The notes: generated by a model from the letters alone, not told the origin. A stretch of 64,000 nucleotides of DNA from Acidobacteriota bacterium (GCA_040754075.1 JBFMDH010000006.1:102285-166284); one strand, 5' to 3'; shown: positions 13,709 to 36,044, counted from the stretch's first letter. A program made the numbers and translations.

Positions 13709-14656
13709 TTGAAAATGTCAGACGAAACCAAAGACCCTAACGCAACTCAAGACACGCCTCAGACGGAAGAACCGCCTAAACCGGAAGCGGTTCCGGCTTC
13801 TACAGAAGCCGCAGCCAAATCGCCAGACGCCAAACTCACCGAAACTGCCAACGTTGAGTCATCAGCGGAAGCCGATAAACCCGTCGATGCCAAGCCGGTT
13901 GACACACCCTCAACCGAAACTCAGACAAAACCTGAAGCGCCTGCTGAAGTATCAACAAAACCCGAACCCCCTAAAGCTGAAGCGCCCGCAAAACCTGCAC
14001 CGCCGCCGCGTCCGCCCGCGCCGCCCAAAGCCACGCCGACGGCTGCCGCCGCAGGTGGACACAAACCGCCCGCGCCGCCCGCAAAAAAAGGGCCGGTCGT
14101 TACGGTTGAGATTACCGACGATCCGTTTATTGATAAAATTAAAGCTAAATTCGGTGATGCCATTTCAGAAGCGGTCGCAACTTACGGACAGAAAATTGTC
14201 CGTGTTAAAAAAGCGACTTATCACGAATTGCTTGAGTTTTTGCATGATGACCCGGACAGCGAGTTCGATATGCTCGCGGATTTAACCGCCATGCATTATC
14301 CGGCAAAAGCCGGTGAAGAGTTCGATATTGTCGCGCAGCTTTATTCAACGACGAAAAATCAACGGTTGCGCGTGAAGACCGCGGTTGCCGATGGCGAAGA
14401 TGCGCCGAGCGTCACGGATATTTGGGAAGGGGCAAATTGGATGGAGCGCGAAGCCTACGATATGTTCGGCGTCAAATTCAGCGGACACCCGGATATGCGC
14501 CGCATCCTACTGCCGGAAGATTGGCCCGGCTTTCCGCTTCGCAAAGAATATCCGATTGAATATCGCGACAATGAGTGGACGGATAAACACATCGAATATC
14601 GCGAGGTCGATTACGATACCAGTTTGATTAATGTGCGTTATGCAGAACGCCGATAA
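13709..14656 (+). CDS. nuoC: NADH-quinone oxidoreductase subunit C (30 kDa) with a roughly 130-aa Pro/Ala/Lys/Glu-rich N-terminal extension
   Basis: C-terminal 180 aa match the NuoC core (EREAYDMFGVKFSGHPD, LPEDWPGFPLRKEYP). Confidence 0.85.
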   Translation: MKMSDETKDPNATQDTPQTEEPPKPEAVPASTEAAAKSPDAKLTETANVESSAEADKPVDAKPVDTPSTETQTKPEAPAEVSTKPEPPKAEAPAKPAPPPRPPAPPKATPTAAAAGGHKPPAPPAKKGPVVTVEITDDPFIDKIKAKFGDAISEAVATYGQKIVRVKKATYHELLEFLHDDPDSEFDMLADLTAMHYPAKAGEEFDIVAQLYSTTKNQRLRVKTAVADGEDAPSVTDIWEGANWMEREAYDMFGVKFSGHPDMRRILLPEDWPGFPLRKEYPIEYRDNEWTDKHIEYREVDYDTSLINVRYAERR

Positions 14657-14665
14657 ATAGATTTT

Positions 14666-14730
14666 AGTTTGTAGCCCATAGTCCGTAGTTCAGATTTCTG
14701 CTACGGGCTACGGGCTACAAACTGCGGACT
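14666..14730. repeat. Tandem-heptamer hairpin with unit AGCCCGT/AGTCCGT
   Basis: Left arm (AGTTTGT)(AGCCCAT)(AGTCCGT)(AGTTCAG). The reverse complement of the right arm is (AGTCCGC)(AGTTTGT)(AGCCCGT)(AGCCCGT). Confidence 0.75.
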
Positions 14731-14737
14731 CATCAAT

Positions 14738-15871
14738 ATGCAATCCATCGAAGTAACCAAACCACACGAAACGTTACTCGACACCGAAGAGATGGTGTTG
14801 AATATGGGACCGCAACACCCTTCGACGCACGGCGTGTTGCGCGTCATTTTAAAGCTTGATGGCGAGACCGTCACCGACCTTGATTGCGATGTCGGCTACC
14901 TGCACAGAGGCGTTGAAAAGATTGCCGAAAATTGCACCTATCAGATGATTACCCCTTACTGGGATCGGCTCGATTACGTTGCCGCGGTTTCAAACGACCT
15001 GGTTTATGTCGAAGCCGTCGAGAAATTGTTGCAGGTCGAAGTGCCGCGTCGCGCTCAGTATTTGCGGGTGATTTTAACCGAACTGCAACGCATTGCTTCG
15101 CATCTGCTGTGGCTTGGCACCCACGCCATTGATATTGGCGCAGTCACTGTGCTGCTTTATTGTTTCCGCGAGCGCGAAGAGATTTTGAAAATCTTTGAAG
15201 ATTTCATCGGCGCGCGCTTAACGGCGCATGCGTTTCGCATCGGTGGTTTGTGGTGGGATGCTTACCCGGAATTTGTTGAGCGGGTGCGCGCCTTTATTCA
15301 GATGATGCCCGGTCGCATTGATGAATACGAAACCCTGTTGAACACCAATCGCATCTGGCTGTCGCGCACGGTCGGCATCGGACATATCTCTGCCGAAGAC
15401 GCGATCAATTACAGTTTGACGGGTCCTGTGCTGCGCGGGTCGGGGGTCAAATATGACATTCGCAAAGCCAATCCCTACTCGGCGTATTCCGAATTCGATT
15501 TTGAAGTTCCGATTGGCGAAAACGGCGACACCTATGACCGTTATCTTTGCCGCATGGCTGAACTCAGGCAATCGCTGCTTATCATTGAACAGGCATTGAA
15601 TGGATTGCCGGAGGGACCGGTGATGGCGAAGGTGCCCAAGATTATCAAACCGCCGGTTGGCGAAGTGTATCATTCGATTGAAGCGCCGAAAGGTGAAATC
15701 GGCGTTTATCTGGTGAGCGATGGAACCGGTAAACCCTATCGCATGCGTATTCGTCCGCCTTCATTTATTAATCTGCAAGCGTTGAAGAAGATGTCCATCG
15801 GGCATCTGGTCGCAGATGTTGTGGCAATCATCGGAACGATTGACATCGTTCTGGGCGAAGTTGACAGGTAA
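14738..15871 (+). CDS. nuoD: NADH-quinone oxidoreductase subunit D (49 kDa)
   Basis: Conserved throughout, 377 aa. Confidence 0.9.
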
Positions 15872-15874
15872 TTT

Positions 15875-15928
15875 CAGTAATGAGTGATGAGTTATCGCTC
15901 GTCATTCTTTACTCATCACTGATCACTG
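15875..15928. repeat. Tandem-heptamer hairpin with unit AGTAATG/AGTGATG
   Basis: CAGTAATGAGTGATGAGTTATCG ... reverse complement of CTTTACTCATCACTGATCACTGAA. Confidence 0.7.
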
Positions 15929-15935
15929 AAGAACT

Positions 15936-17267
15936 ATGCAAGCACTCCTAACTATAACGTTGTTTGTTGCGCCGGAATGGGTGAGAAATCTGACAGGCGA
16001 AAAATTGCCCAATGTTTTCTGGGCTGAATATGTCGTCTGGCCGCTCGTTCAAATTATTGTTGTGCTTTTCATCATTCTGACGCTGGTGGCTTATCTGGTT
16101 TATGTCGAGCGTAAGGTATCGGCATTCATGCAGGCGCGACTCGGGCCGATGCGCGTTGGTCCTTGGGGACTATTGCAACCGGCTGCCGACGGACTCAAAC
16201 TCTTACTCAAAGAAGACATCATTCCGATTAAAGCCGACAAAGCGATTTTCCAACTCGCGCCGATTATTTCGGTCGCCGCGGCACTCGTTGTGCTGGCGGT
16301 CATTCCCTGGGGCGCGGCTTGGGCAACAATTGCCAACGTCAACATCGGCTTGCTGTTCATTCTCGCGGTGTCCTCGGTCGGGGTGCTTGGTTTAGTGCTT
16401 GCCGGTTGGTCATCGAATTCAAAATATTCATTGCTTGGGGCGCTTCGTTCATCGGCACAGATGGTGAGCTATGAAATCGGCATGGGACTTTCAATCATCG
16501 GGGCATTGATGTTTGCCCGCACCCTGTCGATGAACGGCATCATTGAAGCCCAACGCGCCGATGGCATCTGGTATTTTCTTTTTCAACCGCTCGGCTTTCT
16601 GGTTTATATCATCAGCGCGCTTGGCGAAACCAACCGCGCGCCATTCGATTTACCCGAAGCCGAATCCGAACTCGTCGCCGGTTATCACACGGAGTATTCG
16701 GGCTTTCGCTGGGCGCTGTTTTTTATGGCGGAATACACCGCGATGATTGTCACGTCGGCAATTGCGGTTACACTCTTTTTAGGCGGCTGGTCGTTTCCAG
16801 GATTGGATTTGATTAAAGACCCGAATATCTATGTGATTGCCAGCGTCCTGGTTTTTGCCGCAAAAGTCATGGCGTTGATTTACGCTTATATGTGGTTCCG
16901 CTGGACGTGGCCGCGTTATCGTTACGATCAGTTGATGGAACTCGGTTGGAAATGGATGATTCCGGCAGGGTTGGTGAACATCGTCCTCACGGGAATTTTA
17001 TATGTGCTGGCAATGCCGAAATCGCGCGGTGGATTTTTTGATTTCATGCACGAAGTCAACGGGCGGTTGACGCCAACCGGCGCGGGAAAAGTTTTCTTTA
17101 TTGTCACCGGTTTTTTAATCACCATTCCGGTGTCGTGGGCGATACTCGCATACATCAATCGCCATTCGCCGGATTTCAATTTAGATGAACAGCGACAGTT
17201 GCAAATCGCTTTGCGGCGCGAACGGCTGAAGAAAATCGAAGCGCAGTCGCCCGCCGAATCGAATTGA
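15936..17267 (+). CDS. nuoH: NADH-quinone oxidoreductase subunit H with a roughly 100-aa C-terminal extension
   Basis: Conserved NuoH core. Confidence 0.9.
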   Translation: MQALLTITLFVAPEWVRNLTGEKLPNVFWAEYVVWPLVQIIVVLFIILTLVAYLVYVERKVSAFMQARLGPMRVGPWGLLQPAADGLKLLLKEDIIPIKADKAIFQLAPIISVAAALVVLAVIPWGAAWATIANVNIGLLFILAVSSVGVLGLVLAGWSSNSKYSLLGALRSSAQMVSYEIGMGLSIIGALMFARTLSMNGIIEAQRADGIWYFLFQPLGFLVYIISALGETNRAPFDLPEAESELVAGYHTEYSGFRWALFFMAEYTAMIVTSAIAVTLFLGGWSFPGLDLIKDPNIYVIASVLVFAAKVMALIYAYMWFRWTWPRYRYDQLMELGWKWMIPAGLVNIVLTGILYVLAMPKSRGGFFDFMHEVNGRLTPTGAGKVFFIVTGFLITIPVSWAILAYINRHSPDFNLDEQRQLQIALRRERLKKIEAQSPAESN

Positions 17268-17280
17268 AAATCGTCTTAGG

Positions 17281-17353
17281 TTCAACCAGCGGTCTTTGAC
17301 CGCGACCTGGTGAGAAAGCGATTGACTATTTAGCGAGTGGTCTTTGACCGCAC
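17281..17353. repeat. REP-like elements, two direct copies
   Basis: CAGCGGTCTTTGACCGCGA and GTGGTCTTTGACCGCAC. Confidence 0.65.
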
Positions 17354-17410
17354 AATCAATGGCGTTAAACCATATTGAATTTGTCCTAATAAATTTGTAG
17401 TAGGTGAATT

Positions 17411-17956
17411 ATGACAGTCACATCAGTGCCGGGAAGAAGGCGAACTTTTACGAATGCCATCAAACGGCTGCTTTTGATTGATTTATTCAAAGGTCTGGCA
17501 GTGACCTTTAAATATAATCTTCGCGCCTTGTATGAAAAACGCGAAGGCGGCAATCCCAATCAGGCGATTTACACCGAGCAGTATCCGCTCGAACCGGCTC
17601 GCGTATCCGAGCGGTTTCGCGGCGCGCCGCGTCTCAACCTCGACCCGGAAACCGGCGGCACATTGTGTATTGCCTGCGACCTGTGCGCGCTGGCGTGCCC
17701 GGTTGATTGCATCACCGTCAACTCGACCCGTCGCGAAGTGCGTGACGGCGAAAAGGTGAACAAGAAAAAAGTGCTCACCACCTTTTTCTTCGACACCTCG
17801 CGTTGTATGTTTTGCAATCTCTGTTCGGAAGCCTGCCCGACCGATTGTCTGGAACTGACGCAAAGCTTCGAGCTTGCGGTTTATCACCGTTCAGGTTTCC
17901 GCTGGGATAGAGAAATGCTCGAAAAGGGCGTGAAGTATGTGAAATATAATAAGTAG
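17411..17956 (+). CDS. nuoI: NADH-quinone oxidoreductase subunit I (two 4Fe-4S ferredoxin motifs)
   Basis: CIACDLCALACP and CMFCNLCSEACP motifs. Confidence 0.9.
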   Translation: MTVTSVPGRRRTFTNAIKRLLLIDLFKGLAVTFKYNLRALYEKREGGNPNQAIYTEQYPLEPARVSERFRGAPRLNLDPETGGTLCIACDLCALACPVDCITVNSTRREVRDGEKVNKKKVLTTFFFDTSRCMFCNLCSEACPTDCLELTQSFELAVYHRSGFRWDREMLEKGVKYVKYNK

Positions 17957-18117
17957 TCCAGAGTCTGGAGTCTGGAGTCTGGAGTCAAAATAAAGAAAAG
18001 TGAAGTATGAATGATGAGGTATGAACAATTAAATTATTCTTTCAGTTCATCGTTCCGACTTTATCGTTTTCCTAAATTCTGACTCCCGACGCCAGACGCC
18101 AGACTCCAGACTCCCGG
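17954..18117. repeat. Tandem-heptamer hairpin with unit CTGGAGT; the longest one, with about 34-nt arms and a 93-nt interior carrying a secondary palindrome
   Basis: Left arm (CCAGAGT)(CTGGAGT)x3. The reverse complement of the right arm is (GGGAGT)(CTGGAGT)(CTGGCGT)(CTGGCGT)(CGGGAGT). Confidence 0.8.
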
Positions 18118-18124
18118 AGAATGG

Positions 18125-18721
18125 ATGCAACTACACGGATGGGAAGCAGTTCTCTTTTATGTACTGGCGTTTTCGACGCTGATTATGGGTGTGCTGGTGG
18201 TGTCGGCGCGCATCGCTGTACATTCGGCGCTTTTTTTAATCGGCACGCTGGTCAACATCGCCTTGCTGTTTATTCTGCTGCGCTCTGAATTCGTCGCCGG
18301 TGTGCAGATACTGGTTTATGTCGGCGGCGTGATGGTTTTGTTCCTGTTCGTCATTATGCTGGTGCAGACCCGCGCCGAAGAAGAGGCGAAAATCAAACTC
18401 TACACCGGGCAGATGTGGAGCGCCGTGGTCATTGCCTTGCTGCTTGCGGGCGGATTCTTTTTCGCCATGCATCCGGCGCAACCGGCATTTCGTCCGTCAA
18501 TCGAAGCCGCGCAGGAAACCCAGAGTAAACAGGACGAAGCCACCGAACGCACCCAAGCCGGTGCCGGTCAGGCAATTTCCACCGACACTCAGGATGTCGG
18601 TCAGGCGCTTTATAAAGAAGCTGCGCTGCCTTTTGAAATCGCTTCGGTGTTGTTACTCGTCGCGATGGTTGGCGCGGTGTTGCTCGCACGCGGCACCAAA
18701 CAAGAGAGCGAGCATAATTGA
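18125..18721 (+). CDS. nuoJ: NADH-quinone oxidoreductase subunit J with a charged C-terminal extension
   Basis: Conserved NuoJ transmembrane core. Confidence 0.85.
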   Translation: MQLHGWEAVLFYVLAFSTLIMGVLVVSARIAVHSALFLIGTLVNIALLFILLRSEFVAGVQILVYVGGVMVLFLFVIMLVQTRAEEEAKIKLYTGQMWSAVVIALLLAGGFFFAMHPAQPAFRPSIEAAQETQSKQDEATERTQAGAGQAISTDTQDVGQALYKEAALPFEIASVLLLVAMVGAVLLARGTKQESEHN

Positions 18722-18795
18722 TTCGCAATTTTCCTTCGCCGCATTAATTGATTCGATTTTCATTCGCTCATTTTTGATTCATTGAGGAGAACGCT

Positions 18796-19227
18796 GTGAC
18801 CCATCTTCTGTTAAGCGCATTCGGATTCTTAGCATTTATCCAAACTCAAGCTCAACAAAACGAACCATTCCTCAAACGTTTTGAACCGACGCTGGTCAAT
18901 TTTCTGATGCTCAGTTTTCTGTTATTTGTCGTCGGCATTGCAGGTGTTTTGTCGCGGCGCAATATCATCATCATTTTCATGTCCATTGAACTGATATTGA
19001 ATGCGGTCAATCTCAATTTGATTGCCTTCTCGCGCTATTTTCAATTGAACCCGGATGCATTAAAGAAGATGGGGCTTGACCCGAATCCGCTTTCCGGGCA
19101 GGTCTTTACAATTTTCATCATCGTCGTTGCCGCTGCCGAAGCCGCAGTCGGACTAGGTATCGTCATCTCGCTTTTCCGCAATCGCGAAACCGTCGAGGTT
19201 GACGAAATTGATTTATTGAAATGGTAA
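18796..19227 (+). CDS. nuoK: NADH-quinone oxidoreductase subunit K (GTG start, GAGGAG ribosome-binding site, about 35-aa N-terminal extension)
   Basis: Conserved ..[25 protein letters not shown].. NuoK core. Confidence 0.85.
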
Positions 19228-19233
19228 CTAGCA

Positions 19234-19311
19234 AGTAATGAGTAATGAGTGATGAGTGATGAGTGGATAGCCCACAACTTACTCATTACTCATTACTCAT
19301 TACTCATCACT
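19234..19311. repeat. Tandem-heptamer hairpin with unit AGTAATG
   Basis: Left arm (AGTAATG)x2(AGTGATG)x2. The reverse complement of the right arm is (AGTGATG)(AGTAATG)x3. The loop is GATAGCCCACAA. Confidence 0.85.
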
Positions 19312-19318
19312 TGGAAAT

Positions 19319-21469
19319 ATGTTAAAACTCGTTTGGCTTATACCCGTCTTACCCCTCATCGGCTTTTTAATCAATTTCATTCTCGGCAAAAAGCTTGCCC
19401 TCAGCGAAAAGGCTGTCTCTGTAATTGCCTGCGGCGTCATTCTGTTGTCGCTGTTGCTGACCATTGGGGCGTTTTTTGACTACAAGTACAACTTCAATCC
19501 GCAGAATGAAACCAAGCCTTATGTGACGAGTCGCGAAGGCGGCTTTGGCTTCACCTGGATGCCCGGCGGTCGCGCCCATCAAACGCAAGGTGAAGAAGCG
19601 GGAAAGCTTGCGAATTTCAACATCGAGTGGAGCTATCAAATTGACCAACTGTCGCTGGTGATGATGTTCGTCGTCACCTTTGTTGGTTTTTTGATTCACG
19701 TCTTTGCCACCGGGTATATGCACGGCGACACCGGATTTTATCGCTTTTTCGCTTACCTCAATCTGTTTATGTTCATGATGCTTCTGCTGGTGATGGGGTC
19801 GAACTTCATGATTATGTTCATCGGCTGGGAAGGCGTAGGGCTTTGTTCGTATCTGCTCATCGGTTACTACATCAATAAACAGGAAGCGGGCGACGCTGCA
19901 AAGAAGGCTTTCGTCGTCAACCGCATCGGCGATTTCGGTTTTGCGCTGGCAATTATGGGGGCGTTTGCCACTTTCGGCACTTTGCAATTCGATGAGATGG
20001 CGCGCGTGGCAAGCGCCTATCATGTGGAAGCGTTTGGCGCATTTGGACTGATGAGTTGGCTGGCGCTTGGACTGTTTATCGGCGCGACCGGTAAGAGCGC
20101 GCAGATTCCGCTCTATATCTGGTTGCCGGATGCAATGGCAGGTCCCACGCCCGTATCGGCGCTGATTCATGCGGCAACGATGGTGACGGCAGGCGTGTTT
20201 ATGGTGACGCGCACCAATTTTATTTTTCAACGCTCCGGGACAATGATGGCGGTCGTTGCCATCGTCGGCTGCGCGACGGCACTGGTTGCGGCAACCATCG
20301 GCATCACGCAAACCGACATTAAAAAAGTGCTGGCTTATTCGACGGTCTCGCAACTCGGCTATATGTTCTTAGGCGCAGGCGTCGGCGCATTCATTGCGGC
20401 AATTTTCCACGTCTTCACACACGCCTTTTTCAAAGCCCTGCTTTTCCTCGGCTCCGGTTCAGTGATTCACGGCATGCATCATGAACAGGAGATGCCGAAA
20501 ATGGGCGGTTTGAAAAAATATATGCCCACGACCTACAAAACCATGCTGATGGGATGGTTGGCGATTTGCGGCATTCCGATTTGGGCAGGCTTCTTCTCGA
20601 AAGACGAAATTCTCTGGAGCACCTTCAATTCGCACATCTTCGGCGGCGCAAAAGTTTTATGGATTATCGGCTTGATTACTGCTGGCATCACTGCCTTCTA
20701 TATGACGCGGTTGATGACGCTGACCTTTGAAGGCGAAGAGCGATTTAGAAAAAACCCTGATGCGCATTCAGCGCACGGACATGATGGGCATGGTCATCAC
20801 GGCACATTTGAACCGCACGAATCGCCGCAGAGCATGACTGTGCCGCTCATTGTGCTGGCGTTCTTTTCGACTTTCGTCGGACTTCTGGGCATTCCGCACT
20901 ACAGCGCCTTCGAGCATTGGCTTGAACCGGTGATGGATAAACCGCACGGAGCGGAAGCTGCGCATGGCAGTTTCGGGCTTGAGGTGGGGCTGATGATTGT
21001 ATCGGTTGCCGTAGCCGTTATTGGCATCTATCTGGCGCGACAATTTTATTTGAACAGACCGCAACTTGCCGAAGAGTGGACGAAGCGTTTACAACCGCTC
21101 TACAAACTCAGTTTCAATAAGTGGTATTGGGACTGGCTGCTGGATGTAAAAGGCGTCGAAGCAGGCAAGTCCGTAAACAACGCGCTCTGGAAAGTTGATG
21201 CGGCAGTCGTTGACGGTGGTGTCAACGGCGCGGGGGCGCTGACGCGCATCTGGGCGCGCATCAGCAACCTCTGGGACAAGTATGTGGTTGATTTATTAGT
21301 GAACGCCACCGGCTGGACATCGAAAGCCGGTTCGATTGTTCTGAGAACCGTGCAGACCGGATTCTGGCAAAATTACGCGCTGGTGTTCGCGCTTGGCGTT
21401 TTGATTATTCTGGGATTTTATGTTTTCCCGGCAATATCAACGACCTTTAGAGCTTTATTTGGGAAGTAA
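19319..21469 (+). CDS. nuoL: NADH-quinone oxidoreductase subunit L
   Basis: 716 aa with the conserved antiporter-like core and a long C-terminal horizontal helix region. Confidence 0.9.
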   Translation: MLKLVWLIPVLPLIGFLINFILGKKLALSEKAVSVIACGVILLSLLLTIGAFFDYKYNFNPQNETKPYVTSREGGFGFTWMPGGRAHQTQGEEAGKLANFNIEWSYQIDQLSLVMMFVVTFVGFLIHVFATGYMHGDTGFYRFFAYLNLFMFMMLLLVMGSNFMIMFIGWEGVGLCSYLLIGYYINKQEAGDAAKKAFVVNRIGDFGFALAIMGAFATFGTLQFDEMARVASAYHVEAFGAFGLMSWLALGLFIGATGKSAQIPLYIWLPDAMAGPTPVSALIHAATMVTAGVFMVTRTNFIFQRSGTMMAVVAIVGCATALVAATIGITQTDIKKVLAYSTVSQLGYMFLGAGVGAFIAAIFHVFTHAFFKALLFLGSGSVIHGMHHEQEMPKMGGLKKYMPTTYKTMLMGWLAICGIPIWAGFFSKDEILWSTFNSHIFGGAKVLWIIGLITAGITAFYMTRLMTLTFEGEERFRKNPDAHSAHGHDGHGHHGTFEPHESPQSMTVPLIVLAFFSTFVGLLGIPHYSAFEHWLEPVMDKPHGAEAAHGSFGLEVGLMIVSVAVAVIGIYLARQFYLNRPQLAEEWTKRLQPLYKLSFNKWYWDWLLDVKGVEAGKSVNNALWKVDAAVVDGGVNGAGALTRIWARISNLWDKYVVDLLVNATGWTSKAGSIVLRTVQTGFWQNYALVFALGVLIILGFYVFPAISTTFRALFGK

Positions 21470-21478
21470 AAGTTTTTA

Positions 21479-21545
21479 CCACAGAGACACCGAGGCACAG
21501 AGATAAAAATATAATTTCTTCTCTGTGTCTCGGTGCCTCTGTGGT
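21479..21545. repeat. Hairpin with 8-nt tandem units CACAGAGA/CACCGAGG; 25-bp arms with one mismatch
   Basis: ACCACAGAGACACCGAGGCACAGAG ... CTCTGTGTCTCGGTGCCTCTGTGGT. Confidence 0.85.
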
Positions 21546-21578
21546 TATCCATAAATCTATTCTCTCTCAGGAGATGGC

Positions 21579-23357
21579 ATGAAGAACATTCTTTCATTAA
21601 CGACCTGGCTGCCGACCATCGGCGCAATCATTCTGCTCTTTTTCAACAAATCGAAAAACGATGCGATTCGCTGGTTTGCCAATATCTGGATGGGGCTTTG
21701 CTTTTTAATCTCTATCCCCATCATCACAGGCTATGACAAAGGGCTTGGTGGGTTACAATTCATCGAAGATTACGACTGGATTCCACTGATCGGCGCGCGT
21801 TATCAACTCGGCGTCGACGGACTCACGGTGACGTTGATTATTTTAACGACCTTGCTCGGCGTGATTGCGGCGGTCTGTTCGTGGTCTTATATACGCGAAA
21901 AAGGGCGCGAGAAAGAATACTACATCATGCTCTTGTTGTTGCAGACCGGCATGATTGGCGCGTTCGTTGCGGCAGACCTGTTCCTGTTTTTCATCTTCTG
22001 GGAAGTGATGCTGGTGCCGATGTACTTTCTGATTGGCATCTGGGGCGGCAAAAATCGCCTCTATTCGGCAATCAAATTTTTCCTCTACACACTGGTCGGT
22101 TCCGTGCTGATGTTGCTTGCGGTTTTAAAACTCTATTTCGTGTTTCCCGAAGTCGTAAAAGCGCAACTTGAACCGACGCGAGTAACCGCTATGCAATACG
22201 CCACCAATCAGGCGACCGGCAGAGTTAATGATGGCATGATGAAGATGGTTGAGGATGCCCTCAAGCGCGCACAAGGCATAGACCCCTCGGATGCAAGCGG
22301 CAAAAAATCCCTGCCCACAAGTCATGTCCGCTCGTCGTTTAACATTGCGGCGCTGACGGCAATCGGGCCACACATCAAAACGGTTTATGGCGTGAGCGTG
22401 GTTATCTGGATGTTTTTAGGGTTTGCCATTTCCTTTGCGATTAAGGTGCCGATGTTTCCCTTCCACACCTGGTTGCCGGACGCCCACTATGACGCGCCGA
22501 CTGCCGGGTCAGTTATTCTGGCGGGGGTGTTGCTGAAGATGGGAACTTACGGTTTTATGCGATTTTCCTTGCCGATATTTCCCGATGCCGCAACCCATCC
22601 GACGGTCAGAGCGTGGGTGATTGTGCTGGCGATTGTCGGCATCATTTACGGCGCGCTGGTCGCAATGGCGCAAAAAGATGTGAAGAAATTGGTCGCTTAT
22701 TCGTCCGTCTCGCACCTGGGCTTTGTGATGCTCGGACTGTTTGCCTTGAACCCGAACGGCATCAATGGCGCGGTGATGCAGATGATCAATCACGGCATTT
22801 CAACCGGCGCGCTCTTCATGCTTGCGGGTATTTTGTACGAACGCCGCCACACTTATGAGATTGCCGAATTCGGCGGACTGGCAAGCGTGATGCCGACCTA
22901 TTCGACGATCTTTTTAATCGTTACGCTGTCCTCACTTGGTTTGCCATTGATGAACAATTTCATCGGCGAGTTTTTGGTTTTAAGAGGCGCGTTTGAAGCC
23001 AATGTTTACTGGGGCGCGCTTGCCACAGTCGGCATTATTTTAGGCGCGGCGTATATGCTGTGGCTCTATCAACGGGTGTTTTTCGGCGAAGTGAAAAACG
23101 ACCACAACCGGGAGTTACCGGATATGAATGCGCGTGAAGCGTGGCAATTTGCGCCGCTCATCTTTTTGATTTTCTTCATCGGCATCTATCCGAAACCGGT
23201 GCTCGATTTCATCAATCCGCAAACCGAAGCGGTGGTCGCGCAAGTTTACCCGGACTATTTCAAACCGGCTGCTCAACCTGCGGTGGCAAAAGAAAAAATG
23301 GAAGGGCAAACCGGCGAAGAAGAAAAAGTTGCGCCCAAAGCCGGTGAGTCGCATTAA
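21579..23357 (+). CDS. nuoM: NADH-quinone oxidoreductase subunit M with a roughly 75-aa internal insertion
   Basis: Conserved NuoM core. The insertion spans approximately residues 185-260. Confidence 0.9.
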   Translation: MKNILSLTTWLPTIGAIILLFFNKSKNDAIRWFANIWMGLCFLISIPIITGYDKGLGGLQFIEDYDWIPLIGARYQLGVDGLTVTLIILTTLLGVIAAVCSWSYIREKGREKEYYIMLLLLQTGMIGAFVAADLFLFFIFWEVMLVPMYFLIGIWGGKNRLYSAIKFFLYTLVGSVLMLLAVLKLYFVFPEVVKAQLEPTRVTAMQYATNQATGRVNDGMMKMVEDALKRAQGIDPSDASGKKSLPTSHVRSSFNIAALTAIGPHIKTVYGVSVVIWMFLGFAISFAIKVPMFPFHTWLPDAHYDAPTAGSVILAGVLLKMGTYGFMRFSLPIFPDAATHPTVRAWVIVLAIVGIIYGALVAMAQKDVKKLVAYSSVSHLGFVMLGLFALNPNGINGAVMQMINHGISTGALFMLAGILYERRHTYEIAEFGGLASVMPTYSTIFLIVTLSSLGLPLMNNFIGEFLVLRGAFEANVYWGALATVGIILGAAYMLWLYQRVFFGEVKNDHNRELPDMNAREAWQFAPLIFLIFFIGIYPKPVLDFINPQTEAVVAQVYPDYFKPAAQPAVAKEKMEGQTGEEEKVAPKAGESH

Positions 23358-23459
23358 TCGTCTGAGAGTTTGTACCACCCCTGGTTAGCGGGCGGGTTCT
23401 CTCGATATAACGCAGCACGACAGGGCGGCATTTACCGCCTTTCTTACAAAAGAAAAACC

Positions 23460-25124
23460 ATGATCTTAGCACTTCTACAAACAACGGTTGATCTCTCAGC
23501 CATCGCCAAACAAACCACACAGTTGCTCATGCCCGAAGTGATTTTGATTCTCTTCGCTTGCGGCGCGCTGGTTCTCGATGTGTTGTTGCCGCGCGGGCAA
23601 AAACGCGCCGTCGCGTGGTTGAGCCTTGGCGGATTGGGCGTGTCGCTGGTCTCGTTAATCCTTCTCTACGCAGATGTCTTATCCCAGGGCGGCGCGCGCA
23701 AAGGTTTCTTTGACATGATTGTCATTGATACCTATGGCTTCGTTTTCAAAGTGATATTCATCATCGGAGCCATCATCTCTATTTTGCTGTCGATTCGCTA
23801 TCTCGACGAAGAAGGCGAGCAACGCGGCGAATATTATTCGCTGATTCTGTTTTCCGTAGTTGGCATGATGTTTATGGCATCGGGCGCGGATTTACTCAGT
23901 CTGTTTATCGCCCTTGAACTGATGGCGATTTCGATTTACATCCTGGTCGGTTATTTGCGCCGTAGCGAAAAATCGAATGAAGCGGCAATGAAATATTTTC
24001 TACTTGGCGCATTTTCATCCGGCATTCTGCTCTATGGCATTTCACTGGTCTACGGCATGACCGGCACCACCAACCTTGCCAACATCGCCGCCGCGCTGCC
24101 GACGGTTATCAGTAAAAGTTATGCGCCGCTCGGCACGGTTGCCGATATGCGTTATCTGGTGTTGATGTCCATGATTTTGATGGCAGCCGGGATGTTCTTT
24201 AAAGTTGCAGCAGTGCCTTTTCATATGTGGGCACCCGACGCTTACGAAGGCGCGCCGACGTCGGTCACAGCGTTCATGTCGGTTGCTGTGAAAGCCGCAA
24301 GTTTCGCCATGTTCGGGCGCATCTTCCTTTATGGCTTATCGGATATTCGCGGCGCGATTGCGGGCAATGCCGCAAATAATATTCCGGGGCTTCCCGGCTG
24401 GTGGGCGTTGATGAGCGTGGTCGCTGCCATCACTATCGTCTGGGGAAATCTTGCGGCGCTGACGCAAAACAACACTAAACGATTGCTCGCTTATTCATCG
24501 ATTTCACACGCGGGCTACACGTTGCTCGGTATGATTGCCGGCAATCGCACGGGCTACACCGGGTTTGTGATTTATCTGTTCATTTACACGTTAATGAACC
24601 TGGGGGTTTTCGGGTGCATCATCGCGCTGCGCCGTCAAGGGGTGATTGGCGACCAGATGGAAGACCTCAACGGACTCATCAAAAAATCGCCGTGGCTCAC
24701 GGTGATGATGACGATCTTTCTGTTATCGCTTGGCGGCATTCCGCCGACCGCGGGGTTCATCGGCAAGTTCTATCTGTTTGCCGGGCTTATTGAAACCGGC
24801 AACCCCTGGCTTGTGCGTCTGGCAATCCTTGCGGTGCTGATGAGCGCGGTGTCACTTTATTACTATCTTCGTTTCATTCGCGCGATGTATATTGATGAAG
24901 GCAAAGAGAGCGCGCCGATAGCTGCGGCAATGCCGCTCAGGGTTGCGCTGGGGGTTGCGGCAATTCTCGTCCTGTTAATCGGCATCTTCCCGCAGCGGTT
25001 GATTGATTTGACACAAAAAGCGGGAGCGGAACCGAAGACTTACATTTATGAAAAGAAGGACGCGACCGAAACCGAAAGTAAAGATGACGAGTCGGATGAG
25101 CCGATGCGTTCATCTGCAAAATAA
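23460..25124 (+). CDS. nuoN: NADH-quinone oxidoreductase subunit N
   Basis: ATG at 23460 (MILALLQTTVDLSAI..) matches the NuoN N-terminus. The upstream TTG at 23370 was rejected. Confidence 0.85.
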   Translation: MILALLQTTVDLSAIAKQTTQLLMPEVILILFACGALVLDVLLPRGQKRAVAWLSLGGLGVSLVSLILLYADVLSQGGARKGFFDMIVIDTYGFVFKVIFIIGAIISILLSIRYLDEEGEQRGEYYSLILFSVVGMMFMASGADLLSLFIALELMAISIYILVGYLRRSEKSNEAAMKYFLLGAFSSGILLYGISLVYGMTGTTNLANIAAALPTVISKSYAPLGTVADMRYLVLMSMILMAAGMFFKVAAVPFHMWAPDAYEGAPTSVTAFMSVAVKAASFAMFGRIFLYGLSDIRGAIAGNAANNIPGLPGWWALMSVVAAITIVWGNLAALTQNNTKRLLAYSSISHAGYTLLGMIAGNRTGYTGFVIYLFIYTLMNLGVFGCIIALRRQGVIGDQMEDLNGLIKKSPWLTVMMTIFLLSLGGIPPTAGFIGKFYLFAGLIETGNPWLVRLAILAVLMSAVSLYYYLRFIRAMYIDEGKESAPIAAAMPLRVALGVAAILVLLIGIFPQRLIDLTQKAGAEPKTYIYEKKDATETESKDDESDEPMRSSAK

Positions 25125-26013: not shown

Positions 26014-26040
26014 GCATCTTTATAGCGGTCAACACACTAA

Positions 26041-26100: not shown

Positions 26101-26170
26101 ATAGACTGAACACATAAATTGCCAAGTGCTATAGCCTCACCAAGTTTTAAAAATATCAAATCCCCCATTT

Positions 26171-29333: not shown

Positions 29334-29338
29334 AAGAA

Positions 29339-29470
29339 TTTAGGATACAGGCAGAAGAAACGATGAAGGCGGAATGTTAAACGATGAACAAGGTGAAATT
29401 CTTTTTGTTCATCGTTCATCGTTCCTACTTCATACTTTCCTTTCCCTGAATCCTGAATCCTGTATCCTGA
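29339..29470. repeat. Compound hairpin: outer arms TTAGGATACAGG and (CAGGATT)x2-type tandem units, inner arms AACGATGAAC tandem units
   Basis: The reverse complement of the right arm is (TCAGGATA)(CAGGATT)(CAGGATT). The interior carries GAACGATGAACGATGAAC inverted against AACGATGAAG...AACGATGAAC. Confidence 0.65.
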
Positions 29471-29623
29471 TTCTATTGATTTTCCCTCATCAGCGGCTGC
29501 CCCTCCGGTTTGTCGTTTCATCGCTTGTTTATGCAATCCAAGCCATGATATTTCTTTATGCATTCGCGCAAGCCTCAATTAATGCGTCCCCGATATACTG
29601 ATAAGTTCTCTCGGAGGGAGTTC

Positions 29624-31444
29624 ATGAAAAAATCGCTCTATACAATTCTCATCGCTCTACTGATATTTGCTGCATCTTGTGCGTCCTGTAGTCCAAAACC
29701 ACCTAAAAGCACGAACGCGCCCAATCCTCCCTTCGAGGGTGAAACGCCGCAAGAAGCTTATCAATTTCCAGGCGAAACGGGCACCTACGGCGGACAACTG
29801 GTGATGGCTTCGCCCGATGATATGCAAAAATTCAACATCGTCACCGCCGATGATGTGCCTTCGACTTTCGTGCTCTGGTATCACGTCTTTCGCTGTCTGG
29901 TCGATTATCGCAATGGCGCGAATCCGCCGGATTATGACCCGGGCGTCTGCACAAAATACGAAGCCTCGCCCGATGCCAAAGAGTGGACATTCTATATCAG
30001 AAAAGGGGTGCGCTGGTCTGACGGTCAACCGTTTACCGCCGATGATGTTTTATTCACCTATGAGGTGATTAAAGATGAGCGCGTGCAAACCCCGATTCGC
30101 GATATTTTCACCGAAGGCAAAGACGCCAGCGGCAAAGCGACCTATCCCGAATTGCAGAAGATTGATGACCACACGGTGCGTTTTAAACTCACGAAATCCA
30201 ACGGCGCATTTCTCGATTCGATTTTCAACCTCTGGTTAATTCCCAAACACAAATGGGAGCAAGCCTGGCGCGAAGGCAAATTCAATGACGCCATGAAAAT
30301 CAGCGATGACCCGAAAGATGTCGTCGGTCTTGGACCTTTCCGCATTAAAGAATATACCTCCGGTCAACGTGTCGTCCTCGAACGCAACCCTTATTTCTGG
30401 AAAGTCGATAAACAGGGACAGCGCCTTCCATATCTTGACCGCATCATTTTCGTGATTGCCAAAGATTTCAATGCCCTCACCGCGAAATTCCAAGCCGGTG
30501 AAATCGATGTCATGGATAGAGTGCGCGCCGCGGAATTCACTCTGGTTCAAAAGATGGAAAGCCCCGAAGTCAAAGTCGAAGACATCGGCATTTCGCTCAA
30601 TCCCAACTGGATTACCTTGAATCAAAACACCGGCACTAATCCGAAAACCGGCAAACCTTATGTTGAAGCCTGGAAACTCAAACTCTATCGCAATCAAAAA
30701 TTCCGTCAGGCGCTCTCCTTTGCGATTGACCGCGAGGGTTTAGCCAATACGGTGTTTGCCGGTCGCGCGGTGCCGATTTATTCCATCATCACGCCCGGCG
30801 ATAAAACCTGGTATTCCGACGACATCATGAAATACCCGTATAACAAAGACCTCGCCAAACAGCTGCTTGCGGAACTCGGACTCAAAGACACCAATGGCGA
30901 TGGCTTTCTGGAAGACGGCGAAGGGCACACAGTTGGAATCAATATCACCACCAATGCCAGCAATTCACAGCGTGTCAGCACCGCGGCATTCATCGTGAAA
31001 AATTTTCAGGATGTCGGCATCAAAGCCATTTCCAATCCATCGGATATGAAAGTGATTCGCGAAGCCCTCAGTTCAACCTTCATGTTCGATGCGATTGTTC
31101 TCGGTTGGAGTACGGGCGTGCCGCCGGGTCCGCCAAATGTCAAAAATACGCTTTTATCATCGGCGCAAAATCACTCGTTTTTCCCTTTGCAGAAATCGCC
31201 ATCAACCGAATGGGAAGCGCGTATTGATGAGTTGATAGAAAAGATTGACGAAACCGCCGACCAGACTGAACGCAAACGACTGTTTGCCGAAGCCCAGCGC
31301 ATCTGGTCAGAACAGATGGCGGAAATCAACACGGTTGCCGAAAAAGTCGGCATCGCTTATAAAAACAAATTCGGCAATGTGCTACCGAGTCCTTTAGACC
31401 CGAAATTCTCCTGGAACAGCGAAGAGCTTTACATCAAGAAGTAG
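29624..31444 (+). CDS. ABC transporter substrate-binding lipoprotein, family 5 (oligopeptide/dipeptide/nickel type)
   Basis: ATG at 29624 with a GGAGGGAG site and lipobox AASCASC. The ORF track's start at 29558 was rejected. SBP_bac_5-like sequence throughout. Confidence 0.85.
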   Translation: MKKSLYTILIALLIFAASCASCSPKPPKSTNAPNPPFEGETPQEAYQFPGETGTYGGQLVMASPDDMQKFNIVTADDVPSTFVLWYHVFRCLVDYRNGANPPDYDPGVCTKYEASPDAKEWTFYIRKGVRWSDGQPFTADDVLFTYEVIKDERVQTPIRDIFTEGKDASGKATYPELQKIDDHTVRFKLTKSNGAFLDSIFNLWLIPKHKWEQAWREGKFNDAMKISDDPKDVVGLGPFRIKEYTSGQRVVLERNPYFWKVDKQGQRLPYLDRIIFVIAKDFNALTAKFQAGEIDVMDRVRAAEFTLVQKMESPEVKVEDIGISLNPNWITLNQNTGTNPKTGKPYVEAWKLKLYRNQKFRQALSFAIDREGLANTVFAGRAVPIYSIITPGDKTWYSDDIMKYPYNKDLAKQLLAELGLKDTNGDGFLEDGEGHTVGINITTNASNSQRVSTAAFIVKNFQDVGIKAISNPSDMKVIREALSSTFMFDAIVLGWSTGVPPGPPNVKNTLLSSAQNHSFFPLQKSPSTEWEARIDELIEKIDETADQTERKRLFAEAQRIWSEQMAEINTVAEKVGIAYKNKFGNVLPSPLDPKFSWNSEELYIKK

Positions 31445-31586
31445 TCGGCGGTCAGTAGTCGGTAGCCGGTGTTTGATTTGAAAAGTAATCATTGAATGAT
31501 TCACTGTAATATTCATGTTTTAAATTCCGGCTACTGACCACCGGCTACCGACTACTGACCACCGACTACCGGCTACCGACTATTGG
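31441..31586. repeat. Tandem-heptamer hairpin with unit CGGTAGT; asymmetric (about 4 units on the left, 8 on the right) with an inner AATCATTGAATGATT palindrome
   Basis: The reverse complement of the right arm is (CGGTAGC)(CGGTAGT)(CGGTGGT)(CAGTAGT)(CGGTAGC)(CGGTGGT)(CAGTAGC). It lies exactly between the binding-protein stop and the permease start. Confidence 0.8.
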
Positions 31587-31589
31587 CTA

Positions 31590-32599: not shown

Positions 32600-32625
32600 T
32601 TGAAGGAGCGGTCTCTGACCGCGAC
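32600..32625. repeat. REP-like element, single copy
   Basis: GTTGAAGGAGCGGTCTCTGACCGCGA. Confidence 0.65.
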
Positions 32626-32663
32626 CCGTAACTACTCACAAACTGCTCCGGTGAAAGCAAATT

Positions 32664-33824: not shown

Positions 33825-33959
33825 CAGACAGTAGGCAGAAAGCAGTAGGCAGTCTTTTCGTTTAAGGTTTATACTCTCTTTGGCGAGGAAATTGGAAAAG
33901 TAATTCAAGGAAGAAATTTTATAACTGCCTGCTGCCTGCTGCTTTCTGCCTACTGATGC
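33824..33959. repeat. Tandem-heptamer hairpin with unit CAGTAGG/CAGAAAG
   Basis: Left arm CAGACAGTAGG CAGAAAG CAGTAGG CAGTC. The reverse complement of the right arm is (CAGTAGG)(CAGAAAG)(CAGCAGG)(CAGCAGG). The right arm abuts or overlaps the ptsH start codon. Confidence 0.8.
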
Positions 33960-34246
33960 AAGAGCGCACTGTAAAAATCAAAAATCGTTTGGGACTGCAC
34001 GCCAGAGCTGCCGCAAGGTTTGTACAATGTGCTGCGCAATTTACCAGTAAAGTTCAACTACAACGCGATGACAAAGAAGAAATCGCCAATGGCAAATCCA
34101 TTCTCGATGTGTTGATGTTAGCCGCATCAAACGGCACGACGCTTATCATTCAAACCGATGGCGCAGATGAAGAACGCGCTGCCGACGCGCTGGTAAAAAT
34201 AGTTGAAGACCGTTTCGGCGAAGAGGTGTCGGATGGACTTTTCTAA
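33956..34246 (+). CDS. ptsH: Phosphocarrier protein HPr
   Basis: GLHARAAA active-site His region, 96 aa. Confidence 0.85.
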   Translation: MQERTVKIKNRLGLHARAAARFVQCAAQFTSKVQLQRDDKEEIANGKSILDVLMLAASNGTTLIIQTDGADEERAADALVKIVEDRFGEEVSDGLF

Positions 34247-36044
34247 CGAATCTTCCCCTATCAAAAAACCCACTCAACGAGATGTCAGAATGCAGGGACT
34301 TGCGGCAAGTTCGGGAATTGCCGTGGGTCGCGCTCTGCGTCTTGATGAAAAAGGCCGCCAGCAAATTTTTTATGTGGTGGTATCGAGCAATCAGGTGCGC
34401 AGCGAAGTCCGCCGCCTGCGCGATGCCATCACGGAAGCGCGCGCGCAACTCGAAGAGATACGCTCAAAACTGGTGCGCGAACTCGGCATCGAACATTCTT
34501 ACATTCTTGATTCGCATTTGATGATGCTCGAAGATGAACGCTTTCAAGCGGAACTCAAACAGGAAATCCGCGCCCGAAAAATCAATGCCGAATGGGCGGT
34601 GCGCGCCGTAACCGACCGCATCGTCAGCGCCTATAAACAGGTGCAGGATTCCTATCTTCGCGAACGCTCGACCGATTTGGAAGATGTTGCCGCGCGCCTC
34701 ATTAACATCTTGTCGGGTCACACCAAATTCAACCCGGAGGAATTGAATGAAAAGGTTGTCCTCGTAGCCGAAGACATATTGCCTTCGACGGTTGCTGAAC
34801 TCAATTTCAATAATGTGCTTGGCTTTGCCACAAATTCCGGCGGACTCACTTCGCATTCGGCAATTATCGCCAGAGCTTTAAATATTCCGGCGGTCGTCGG
34901 TCTGCATGACATCACCCTGAAAATCAAAACCGGCGACGCAATGGTGATTGATGGAACCGCAGGCGAAGTCATCCTGCGTCCGACCAAACCGTTGATTCGC
35001 GATTATCTCGAAAAGAGCGAGCACGAAGCGAAACGCCCCACTAATTCGGCAACCAGAGTCGCCGAACCGACGATGACCATTGATGGGGTTCGCATTAAAT
35101 TGCGCGCCAATCTTGAACTCCCGAATGAGATTGTTTCGCTGCCGTTATTTGGCGCAGAGGGCATCGGGCTTTATCGTTCGGAATTCATGTTTTTAAATCG
35201 TTTGCCGAATTTGCCCGATGAAGAAGAGCAATGTCTGCTCTATTCCTGGCTTGCCGAATCGGCAGGCGACGCGGGCGCAAGCATTCGCATTTTTGATTTG
35301 GGCGGCGATAAACTTTCACTGCAAGGGTTTGAAGGCGAAGCCAACCCGGCGCTCGGTATGCGGGCGATTCGTCTATCGCTCAGGGTGCAGGAAATTTTCA
35401 AAACCCAGTTGCGCGCCATTTTTCGCGCCAATATGCAGGGCAATTTGCGAGTCATTTTGCCGCTGGTCACGACCATCAATGAACTGAGAGAAGCCAAAAA
35501 AATTATTGAAGAGGTCAAGCGCGACCTCAAAAACGAGCGCGTCAAATATAATCCCAACACCAAACTCGGGGTAATGATTGAAGTACCCGCTGCCGCGATG
35601 ATGGCGGATTTGTTTGCCCACGAATCCGATTATTTATGCGTAGGGACGAATGATTTGATTCAGTATATCCTGGCGGTTGACCGCGCCAATGAAAGCGTTG
35701 CGCATCTTTATCAACCGTTTCATCCGGCAGTGCTGAGGACACTGGCGCATCTGGTGCGGGTTGCCGAAGCGGAAAATAAACCCCTGGAAGTTTGCGGCGA
35801 GATGGCATCAGACCCTGTGCAGGCGATTGCTTTGGTTGGGCTTGGCGTGCGCACCCTGAGCATGGTGCCGACCTCGATTCCGCTGATCAAAAATGCGCTC
35901 GCGACCATCGATTGCTCCAGTGTGCGCGAGTTGATGACCAAAGCCTTGAAACTCGCATCCGCCGATGAAGTGCAGGAGTTGCTCTCAAAAGAACTCCCCA
36001 ATCAAGCGCCGCGATTAGTCGCCGCACTGGCTTCGCAAAGTTAG
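34233..36044 (+). CDS. ptsI: Phosphoenolpyruvate-protein phosphotransferase (PTS enzyme I)
   Basis: Conserved enzyme I N-terminal, PEP-utilising and TIM-barrel regions. Chosen ATG at 34233 with a GAAGAGG site, overlapping the ptsH 3' end by 14 nt. Confidence 0.85.
   Translation: MDFSNESSPIKKPTQRDVRMQGLAASSGIAVGRALRLDEKGRQQIFYVVVSSNQVRSEVRRLRDAITEARAQLEEIRSKLVRELGIEHSYILDSHLMMLEDERFQAELKQEIRARKINAEWAVRAVTDRIVSAYKQVQDSYLRERSTDLEDVAARLINILSGHTKFNPEELNEKVVLVAEDILPSTVAELNFNNVLGFATNSGGLTSHSAIIARALNIPAVVGLHDITLKIKTGDAMVIDGTAGEVILRPTKPLIRDYLEKSEHEAKRPTNSATRVAEPTMTIDGVRIKLRANLELPNEIVSLPLFGAEGIGLYRSEFMFLNRLPNLPDEEEQCLLYSWLAESAGDAGASIRIFDLGGDKLSLQGFEGEANPALGMRAIRLSLRVQEIFKTQLRAIFRANMQGNLRVILPLVTTINELREAKKIIEEVKRDLKNERVKYNPNTKLGVMIEVPAAAMMADLFAHESDYLCVGTNDLIQYILAVDRANESVAHLYQPFHPAVLRTLAHLVRVAEAENKPLEVCGEMASDPVQAIALVGLGVRTLSMVPTSIPLIKNALATIDCSSVRELMTKALKLASADEVQELLSKELPNQAPRLVAALASQS

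Follow-up and report, generated by a model that had tools for sequence, protein, structure and literature searches.

Strong hairpins lie between neighbouring genes in a 64,000-nt stretch of Acidobacteriota DNA (the window), which comes from a relative of Blastocatellia, and several of them separate successive genes of the complex I cluster that runs from nuoC to nuoN. With a probability of roughly 0.55, these hairpins are DNA-level palindromic microsatellites of 7-nt units (heptamers) that settle in the spacers between the stop codon of one gene and the start codon of the next. The elements' anatomy, 7-nt period, polarity, distribution and turnover, and the missing G:U signature in their stems, are observed directly, and from these we infer a mechanism of slippage and nested insertion and a filter of tolerance. 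A first-pass annotation had placed most of the hairpins inside two long operons; they are not a set made for these two, and belong to a phylum-wide repeat class that is found at many unrelated junctions.

In each hairpin, tandem 7-nt units form one arm, a non-conserved spacer follows, and the reverse-complement array serves as the other arm. Period 7 gave the best lag self-identity in seven of the nine strong inverted repeats with periodic arms in the window, and Tandem Repeats Finder (TRF) returned a period of 7 for 16 arrays there and mostly period 7 overall. Stems are predicted at 20-33 bp. Folding scores (z, the folding energy against dinucleotide shuffles) run from -3.5 to -10.6 across all heptamer-type sites of the window, three additional ones included.

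Hairpins had been annotated at nuoC/nuoD, nuoD/nuoH, nuoI/nuoJ, nuoK/nuoL and nuoL/nuoM, and inverted repeats do lie in each of these spacers (z -5.1 to -10.6). The nuoC/nuoD hairpin (14666-14723) consists of TAGYCCR / CTACGGG units in 23-nt arms around a 12-nt loop (lag-7 identity 0.62; TRF period 7; spacer z -7.8). At nuoD/nuoH (15873-15930), AGTRATG units form 20-nt arms (lag-7 identity 0.77; z -5.1) that begin 1 nt past the stop codon and end 5 nt ahead of the ATG. The nuoI/nuoJ hairpin (17955-18116; lag-7 identity 1.00; z -7.6) is nested: outer arrays of (GAGTCTG)3.7 and (GACKCCA)4.9, both with TRF period 7, enclose an inner imperfect hairpin at about 17999-18078. Arms of 33 nt around a 16-nt loop occur at nuoK/nuoL (19232-19313), where 4.6 copies of AGTRATG face 4.7 copies of TTACTCA (z -8.2, or -9.6 in a second folding computation). 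The nuoL/nuoM hairpin (21476-21547; z -10.6) is atypical. Its units are 8 nt long (CACAGAGA/CACCGAGG; best lag 8; TRF period 8), its 5′ arm is A+C-rich, and its polarity is reversed relative to the others; the 31 nt 3′ of it contain an AGGAG Shine-Dalgarno sequence. The nuoJ/nuoK (z 0.1) and nuoM/nuoN (z -1.7) spacers of the window hold no structure.

Elements of the same type stand elsewhere in the window. A hairpin of CGGWAGY units (5679-5764; TRF period 7; z -6.2) separates a cytochrome c gene (5248-5676) from a gene of the PolyA_pol/CCA-adding type (5764-7149). By alignment it is a paralogue, part of the loop included, of the hairpin at 31441-31587, which lies between a gene for a family-5 solute-binding protein (SBP; 29558-31444) and a permease gene. 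This latter hairpin has CGGTAGY units, eight copies of them in its 3′ arm (z -9.0), holds the SBP stop codon (TAG) inside its 5′ arm and leaves 2 nt between its end and the permease ATG. A second nested hairpin (29338-29472; z -6.4), with outer arms of AGGATAC.../CCTGAAT x3.7, separates the SBP gene from a Na/Ca-exchanger gene. Ahead of ptsH, CAGTAGG / CTGCCTG units make 24-nt arms around a 79-nt loop (33829-33955; z -7.2). Further hairpins follow cinA (46051-47289), with TTTCTGG units and 4.9 copies of AAACCAG at about 47292-47371 (z -4.3) before the ATG of the next gene at 47375, and separate two minus-strand genes at 61576-61723 (GTTTCTA / AACCAGA; 93-nt loop; z -3.5). Those at SBP/permease, permease/ptsH and downstream of cinA were in the earlier annotation and are borne out by their folding scores. 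The hairpin ahead of ptsH had been drawn as overlapping the start of that gene; it abuts the ATG at 33956, with a gap of 0 nt.

A weak sigma-70-like promoter match (TAGGCA-18-TATACT, 33846-33875) sits inside the 79-nt loop ahead of ptsH; in the promoter consensus scan, the count of matches was not above that in shuffles. Because of this match, ptsHI may be its own transcription unit and not the tail of the transporter operon, and the single SBP-permease-permease-ptsHI operon assumed at first is not established.

Both nested elements carry, in the loop of their outer arrays, an inner imperfect hairpin of a different family. The inner elements of nuoI/nuoJ and of the 29338 hairpin (29350-29445) are homologous by alignment; the outer arrays are unlike. 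Loops have a median length of 29 nt and reach about 100 nt, and no shared motif was found in them; all that stood out was that purines are slightly over-represented on the sense strand (p 0.01-0.02). Unit families in the window include AGTRATG, TAGYCCR, GAGTCTG, CGGTAGY, CAGTAGG and GTTTCTR. No universal unit motif emerged: AGT, expected in 21.6 of the 119 units, is present in 41, AGT and CAG are enriched about twofold in units and stop trinucleotides mildly in both arms, all counts that shared ancestry inflates. Rfam 15 gave 0 matches on the whole window at gathering thresholds. Riboswitch or small RNA families are ruled out as the sequence is not conserved, CRISPR arrays as the units are contiguous and have no spacers, and coding repeats as the elements lie outside open reading frames (ORFs) and 7 is no multiple of 3.

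A mirror order of variant units between the two arms was also considered. A register-shift test gave a pairing of 0.91 for native arms against 0.82 for arms shifted by 7 nt, a difference that proved to be an artefact of the winner's curse; once units were permuted and the null was given its best register too, pairing was 0.916 observed against 0.908. Since this controlled test was negative, copying of one arm from the other cannot be claimed. One heptamer array in the window stands alone: five copies of AATCCGC at 6031-6065, inside ORF 5764-7149 and without an inverted partner. An insertion in the head domain of PolyA_pol contains it, and AATCCGC is the reverse complement of the GATTGCG family that is common at nuoJ/nuoK in relatives.

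The distribution of the hairpins follows gene boundaries closely. All 11 heptamer-type elements in the 64 kb lie outside ORFs, and 13 of 13 strong inverted-repeat clusters fall in the non-coding part, about 16% of the window (P ~4e-11). Hairpins occupy 11 of 34 co-directional junctions in the window and 0 of 17 convergent or divergent ones (p 0.009). A stem starts a median of 4 nt past the stop codon and ends a median of 10 nt ahead of the start codon, which leaves a residual spacer outside the hairpin of 14 nt at the median, similar to the 13-25-nt spacers of hairpin-free relatives. The Shine-Dalgarno sequence, where present (GGAGG at nuoJ/nuoK, GGAG at nuoI/nuoJ), is just outside the stem; nuoK/nuoL and nuoD/nuoH have none and only 2-10 nt before the ATG.

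The same class of element was followed in nuoD neighbourhoods from 80 Acidobacteriota genomes, 34 of them Blastocatellia loci, and from 80 metagenome contigs that gave 71 independent non-redundant loci, so that pooled counts cover 151 further Acidobacteriota nuo loci, most of them from metagenome-assembled genomes (MAGs). Period 7 was found in 78 of the 86 hairpins with periodic arms in the Blastocatellia loci and in 74 of 76 in the metagenome loci, or 152 of 162 when summed; Terriglobia loci contributed 33 more period-7 hairpins. A thermophilic Chloracidobacterium-like group had almost no heptamer hairpins. Placement recurred as well, with period-7 hairpins at 64 of 345 co-directional junctions and at 6 of 101 convergent or divergent ones in the Blastocatellia loci (p 0.0016).

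Placement at cistron boundaries, as first annotated, is real and recurs in relatives. Counted as folding z < -3 over the window and the 34 Blastocatellia loci, occupancy was 24/31 at nuoK/nuoL, 17/34 at nuoD/nuoH, 17/31 at nuoJ/nuoK, 15/32 at nuoI/nuoJ and 12/23 at nuoM/nuoN, and low at nuoH/nuoI (4/33) and nuoL/nuoM (4/26); nuoK/nuoL and nuoL/nuoM are occupied in Terriglobia too. Units at one and the same junction vary by genome, those at nuoK/nuoL including AGTGATG, TAGTCCT, GAGTCCT, TTGTCAT, CGTGATG, GGTTCAG and GTGACAA. In the relative L027, an N run lies within a duplicated heptamer hairpin region of the nuoK/nuoL spacer (about 6070-6170), which suggests that heptamer arrays break or confuse short-read assemblies. 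Within the library of papers that was searched, none joins heptanucleotide repeats with Acidobacteria.

The two arms of a hairpin are not interchangeable. The 5′ arm was G+T-rich in 102 hairpins against 15 (p 4e-17), a polarity that was replicated on the independent metagenome set (61 against 10; p 5e-10; 163 against 25 with both sets summed). Base fractions in the 5′ arm are 0.31 for G and 0.17 for C, and ATG or GTG occurs in 33 first-arm units against 7 second-arm units. Because a sequence X-loop-rc(X), where rc denotes the reverse complement, reads X-first on both strands, this polarity belongs to the element and not to the gene strand. A filter acting on the transcript would leave the observed polarity whichever way a gene points: the reverse polarity would put a U/G-rich, terminator-like arm after the stem and would bring Shine-Dalgarno-like and start-like triplets right before the true start.

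Turnover is visible in pairs of close relatives, which had to be sought within the comparison set since a metagenome scan found no NuoD more than 89% identical to that of the window. Exact look-ups of the window's NuoD and NuoI proteins found neither of them on record. Between two loci, L021 and L098, 21 kb contain 19 substitutions and only two indels (55 nt and 9 nt), both of them in hairpin arrays and each in one arm. A given junction can be occupied by different heptamer families, or by a doublet resembling repetitive extragenic palindromic (REP) sequences, in genomes whose nuoD is 95-97% identical. Three such loci, L024, L099 and L100 (nuoD 96-97% identical), share one nuoD/nuoH hairpin in spacers of 72, about 175 and 109 nt. 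In the nuoJ/nuoK spacer, members of this group have a hairpin of (AAAAGGT)n or (GATTGCG)n units or else a REP-like doublet, and the group's nuoK/nuoL and nuoI/nuoJ hairpins are of differing unit families. L026 and L087 (96.5%) likewise have different occupants, with an nuoH/nuoI spacer of 225 nt in L026 and 16 nt in L087. The nuoD/nuoH hairpin is present in L003 and L005 and missing in L002 (92-94% identical). In L008 a mere remnant is left of the nuoD/nuoH hairpin of L006 and L009, which fits deletion across the base of the stem. In L103 and L104, the nuoD/nuoH hairpin shared by L024, L099 and L100 has a REP-like palindrome in its centre and most of its 3′ arm is gone; the nested cases are thus this hairpin in L103 and, in the window, those at nuoI/nuoJ and 29338. 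Sites persist while their occupants change, and the nested forms look like intermediates.

A simple scheme could produce these patterns. Arrays would grow and shrink by unit-wise slippage within an arm, be replaced through the insertion of a palindrome into the centre of an existing hairpin, and be lost by clean deletion across the stem. Elements would build up at the least harmful sites, the short spacers that separate stop from start codons in co-directional genes. In a polycistronic RNA such an insert would fold to a 20-33-bp helix and loop itself out, with the stop and start codons left about 14 nt apart. Lacking a U-tail, it would form no terminator, and its C-rich, G-poor 3′ arm would give no false Shine-Dalgarno sequence or start codon.

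Whether selection acts on DNA or on RNA bears directly on this scheme. Mismatches in 2180 stem positions comprised 61 G:T, 66 A:C and 93 transversions (p 0.72); the excess of G:U-compatible mismatches on the sense strand that would be expected if an RNA helix were selected is missing. This result is an absence of support for selection at the level of RNA and not a disproof of it.

The most serious rival, possible but doubtful, holds that the hairpins are selected RNA stem-loops. The helix would protect the upstream cistron after endonucleolytic cleavage or against 3′-to-5′ exonucleases, or would be cut by RNase III, dividing the nuo and SBP mRNAs into segments of fixed stability, and its sequence would be free to turn over because any stable hairpin would do. 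The persistent filling of the same junctions across Blastocatellia, with nuoK/nuoL and nuoL/nuoM in Terriglobia too, speaks for such a role, as does the frequent replacement of a missing heptamer hairpin by another palindrome (at nuoK/nuoL in L012; at nuoJ/nuoK in L100). Enrichment of nuo junctions over other co-directional ones points the same way. RNase III needs a long helix (about 20 bp or more), for which the predicted 20-33-bp stems suffice, and stems of this length are long enough to matter for RNA decay. The REP between malE and malF stabilises the upstream mRNA, and the hairpin directly 3′ of the SBP gene parallels it. The comparison with REP, made in the first-pass annotation, holds in that both are dispersed extragenic palindromes inside operons; the malE-malF logic fits only SBP/permease.

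Other observations count against selected stem-loops. A role in complex I subunit stoichiometry had been proposed; the subunits of complex I are equimolar, so that no stoichiometric need exists in nuo and differential segment stability there has no stoichiometric rationale. Stems show no G:U excess, and loops are large and unconserved. Close relatives lack a hairpin at several junctions, with spacers of 13-25 nt there. Operon ends, which would profit most from a stabiliser on the 3′ side, seldom have a heptamer hairpin (convergent junctions: 0/9 in the window, 4/53 in relatives), and the identical class of element occurs at functionally unrelated junctions. There is no sign that the hairpins were selected to tune mRNA stability or to set subunit ratios. 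Since they must fold in mRNA, effects on stability are plausible, and an influence on mRNA decay or RNase III cleavage would be an expected consequence of palindromic microsatellites and not the reason for their presence.

Several points weigh against the reading of the hairpins as tolerated DNA-level microsatellites. Some junctions stay filled class-wide, nuoK/nuoL above all with its 24 of 31 loci. Junctions of nuo are richer in hairpins (46/179) than other co-directional junctions (18/166), which could reflect selection for a hairpin; the p-value of this enrichment is inflated because orthologous hairpins are not independent events. The G:U comparison is weak if arrays are homogenised faster than selection acts, and it was run without a positive control. 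No mobilising enzyme came to light, in that no transposase domain was present in the scanned ORFs of the window and no insertion sequence was found in it, although 64 kb says little for a whole genome. No target-site duplication was visible beside hairpins in the aligned filled and empty sites. Errors in MAG assembly could cause some of the differences in array length; arrays are shorter than typical reads, though. Finally, the 7-nt period and the polarity are left without a cause.

A more ambitious proposal is unlikely to hold. The 7-nt register, the G+T-first polarity and the self-renewing occupancy of junctions, common to Acidobacteriota, Xanthomonas, cyanobacteria and Beggiatoaceae, could reflect one conserved but so far unrecognised molecular process that measures 7 nt and builds or repairs palindromic arrays, the products of which were co-opted as sequence-independent operon punctuation. 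A polymerase, primase or repair step on extruded hairpins would be a candidate for such a process. In long operons for membrane proteins such as nuo, the punctuation would preserve the coupling of translation and protect the RNA between cistrons against Rho and nucleases.

Translational coupling by itself is quite improbable as the reason for the hairpins. Here the helix would join stop and start codons at its base, and a terminating ribosome would melt the lowest pairs, lay the start region bare and re-initiate, tying together the synthesis of neighbouring subunits. Tight geometry, a median of 4 nt from the stop and 10 nt to the start, is in keeping with this, as are the Shine-Dalgarno sequence just outside the stem where there is one, the 2-10 nt to the ATG at nuoK/nuoL and nuoD/nuoH where there is none, and the poverty of 3′ arms in ATG and GTG (7 units against 33 in 5′ arms). 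Such geometry is trivial, however, for any insert in a spacer of 15-25 nt. Hairpin-free relatives cope with a bare spacer, and elements also stand where coupling is unlikely, as between cinA and its unknown neighbour or between cytochrome c and the CCA-adding enzyme.

Very unlikely, too, is a role for the hairpins as cruciforms or protein-binding sites in DNA, like the gyrase-binding bacterial interspersed mosaic elements (BIMEs) of E. coli, that would buffer the supercoiling caused by transcription of a long membrane-protein operon and the co-translational insertion of its products. The mismatch spectrum is strand-symmetric and the polarity belongs to the duplex and not to the transcript, both as such a role would have it, and the elements are enriched in nuo, whose subunits are mostly integral to the membrane. 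Long spacers disfavour cruciform extrusion, however, and those between the arms have a median of 29 nt and reach about 100 nt; no conserved unit or loop motif offers a protein something to read, and the elements are depleted from divergent regions, unexpected for a purely topological device. Least credible are transcription terminators or attenuators that split the cluster into separate units: the hairpins are very stable and three weak consensus matches overlap them (15880; 17976 on the minus strand; 31458), yet these are minor sub-stems among 36 matches in the region, not above shuffles (27.9 +/- 5.5), no T-run follows any full hairpin, so that without a U-tail no intrinsic termination is to be expected there, the G+T-first, A+C-last polarity is opposite to that of an A-tract, stem and U-tract, the elements occur less often where genes converge than within strings of genes, and termination within a cluster for one obligate complex is implausible.

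A second repeat family is present in the window and is separate from the heptamer hairpins. At nuoH/nuoI, where REP-like copies had been annotated in place of a hairpin, there are indeed two direct copies of GCGGTCTTTGACCGC on the plus strand (17281-17303 and 17329-17351, from a repeat-family search; spacer z -1.4). The spacer between the two permease genes holds a single plus-strand copy, GCGGTCTCTGACCGC, at 32600-32622 (spacer z -0.8). The core of the family is GCGGTCTTTGACCGC. It numbers 10 copies in the window and is all but absent from the 80 relatives' loci, whose nuoH/nuoI spacers hold other species-specific palindromes. Inverted doublets lie at 8802-8863, 26040-26102 and 36071-36142; the first and the last follow genes that end at 8740 and 36044, and the 26040 doublet lies between two minus-strand genes. 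Single copies (17281, 17329, 32600, 36252, 41553 and 54890) lie within gene strings. The GCGGTCTTTGACCGC family is thus species-specific and REP-like in the strict sense. An XisI-family gene (8895-9188, minus strand) adjoins one REP-like doublet; the XisI family is best known from cyanobacteria.

Tandem heptamers have precedents in other phyla. Xanthomonas carries 70-75 pairs of GGGAATC arrays, always convergent, at sites that are kept between species while array length varies (Rehm et al. 2015, PMC4692102), and Nostoc PCC 7120 has GGGGAYT repeats that also occur inside operons, as at pecE/pecF (PMC4692102). The hairpins described here resemble both in their 7-nt tandem units, intergenic position, opposite-strand arrays and G-rich array first, and resemble the Xanthomonas pairs in that sites are kept between relatives while length and sequence vary. 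They differ in having no single unit, with many unit families per genome and nearly all arrays paired as hairpins, and in their strong preference for stop-to-start spacers of co-directional genes, their nesting and their Acidobacteriota host. Unlike GGGAATC, most units have at most two consecutive G and cannot form G-quadruplexes, with exceptions such as AGGGGCT, GGGGATA and GGGATGA. Direct repeats of TAACTGA in Beggiatoaceae, cyanobacteria and Bacteroidetes, with a proposed role in translation (MacGregor 2015, PMC4679880), include one inverted case among 170 sets (PMC4679880). They share with the present elements an almost wholly intergenic position and an end a few nucleotides from the start codon; unlike these elements, they are direct arrays of one specific unit.

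Short tandemly repeated repetitive (STRR) heptanucleotides of cyanobacteria were reportedly described by Mazel and colleagues in 1990, and Elhai and colleagues are said to have found in 2008 that small dispersed repeats insert into them. In heterocystous cyanobacteria, STRR units are CCCCAGT, TTGGTCA and CAACAGT and have been described mainly as direct arrays. Like the elements of the window, they would be intergenic tandem heptamers with many copies per genome that host nested small palindromes; the unit sequences and the phylum are different, and the hairpin arrangement and polarity are the rule only here.

Enterobacterial REPs have one consensus of 20-40 nt per family and short stems and loops. 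REP and BIME sequences are dispersed extragenic palindromes; two reviews treat REPs (PMC3733652, PMC2817692). Heptamer hairpins are similarly dispersed and extragenic, often inside operons, transcribed as stem-loops and variable between species, and they differ in the lack of a consensus, in periodic arms of 20-33 nt or more and in long, variable loops. The conserved consensus of REPs is found instead in the GCGGTCTTTGACCGC family, whose 10 copies in 64 kb are species-specific and include inverted doublets at the ends of operons. In phage T7 early mRNA, the RNase III sites between cistrons are specific, conserved and bulged, and their cleavage has been demonstrated. The present hairpins also place long helices at successive cistron boundaries of one transcript, but their sequences turn over. 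Judged by these comparisons, the elements of the window classify as heptameric simple sequence repeats in inverted pairs and depart from each named family in its specifics (unit, G-quadruplex, single consensus).

The genomic setting of the window was established by Pfam domains, which identify nuoC, D, H, I, J, K, L, M and N as well as SBP_bac_5, two ATP-binding cassette (ABC) permeases, HPr, PtsI and CinA. NuoD of the window shares 95% identity with that of L078, a Blastocatellia MAG, and 92% with those of two others. The nuo cluster (13709-25124, from the start of nuoC at 13709-14656 to the end of nuoN at 25124) has the order nuoC-D-H-I-J-K-L-M-N; it lacks nuoE, F and G, and neither nuoA nor nuoB immediately precedes it. 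The 950 nt 5′ of nuoC contain only two small unannotated ORFs (13005-13205 and 13260-13390). NuoC itself begins with an extension (13709-14200) that is about 160 residues long and has a high content of Pro, Ala, Lys and Glu, which aligns poorly among relatives and precedes the Complex1_30kDa domain at residues 164-285.

About 850 nt upstream of nuoC, two adjacent hairpins (12740-12789 and 12813-12868) have unlike stems and a common loop of 17-18 nt, GGGTCACGGGGGCGACGC. Some 130 nt around them are near-identical in L078 (7950-8080), far above other intergenic DNA, with no Rfam match; the pair is probably a conserved small RNA or regulatory element. An ORF that overlaps these hairpins (12334-12762, minus strand) has no Pfam match and may be spurious. 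Farther on, a 73-nt direct repeat, 93% identical between 43672-43744 and 44733-44805, lies near the starts of ORFs 43631-44641 and 44701-45219, as if part of a gene had been duplicated.

That bacterial genomes contain more heptameric repeats than expected has been known for decades, and one of the few studies dedicated to them states that no detailed literature on them exists (PMC4692102). The nuo junctions of Acidobacteriota provide a comparative system of one conserved operon with eight orthologous junctions in more than 150 genomes, and the elements turn over so quickly that their gain, loss, nesting and replacement can be seen under way. Two questions become testable in it: what makes heptamer arrays and their inverted pairing, and whether palindromes within operons are parasites, passengers that the host tolerates, or punctuation with a function. 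In practical terms, the calling of start codons, the prediction of terminators and the assembly of short reads will all be confused by these elements in this phylum.

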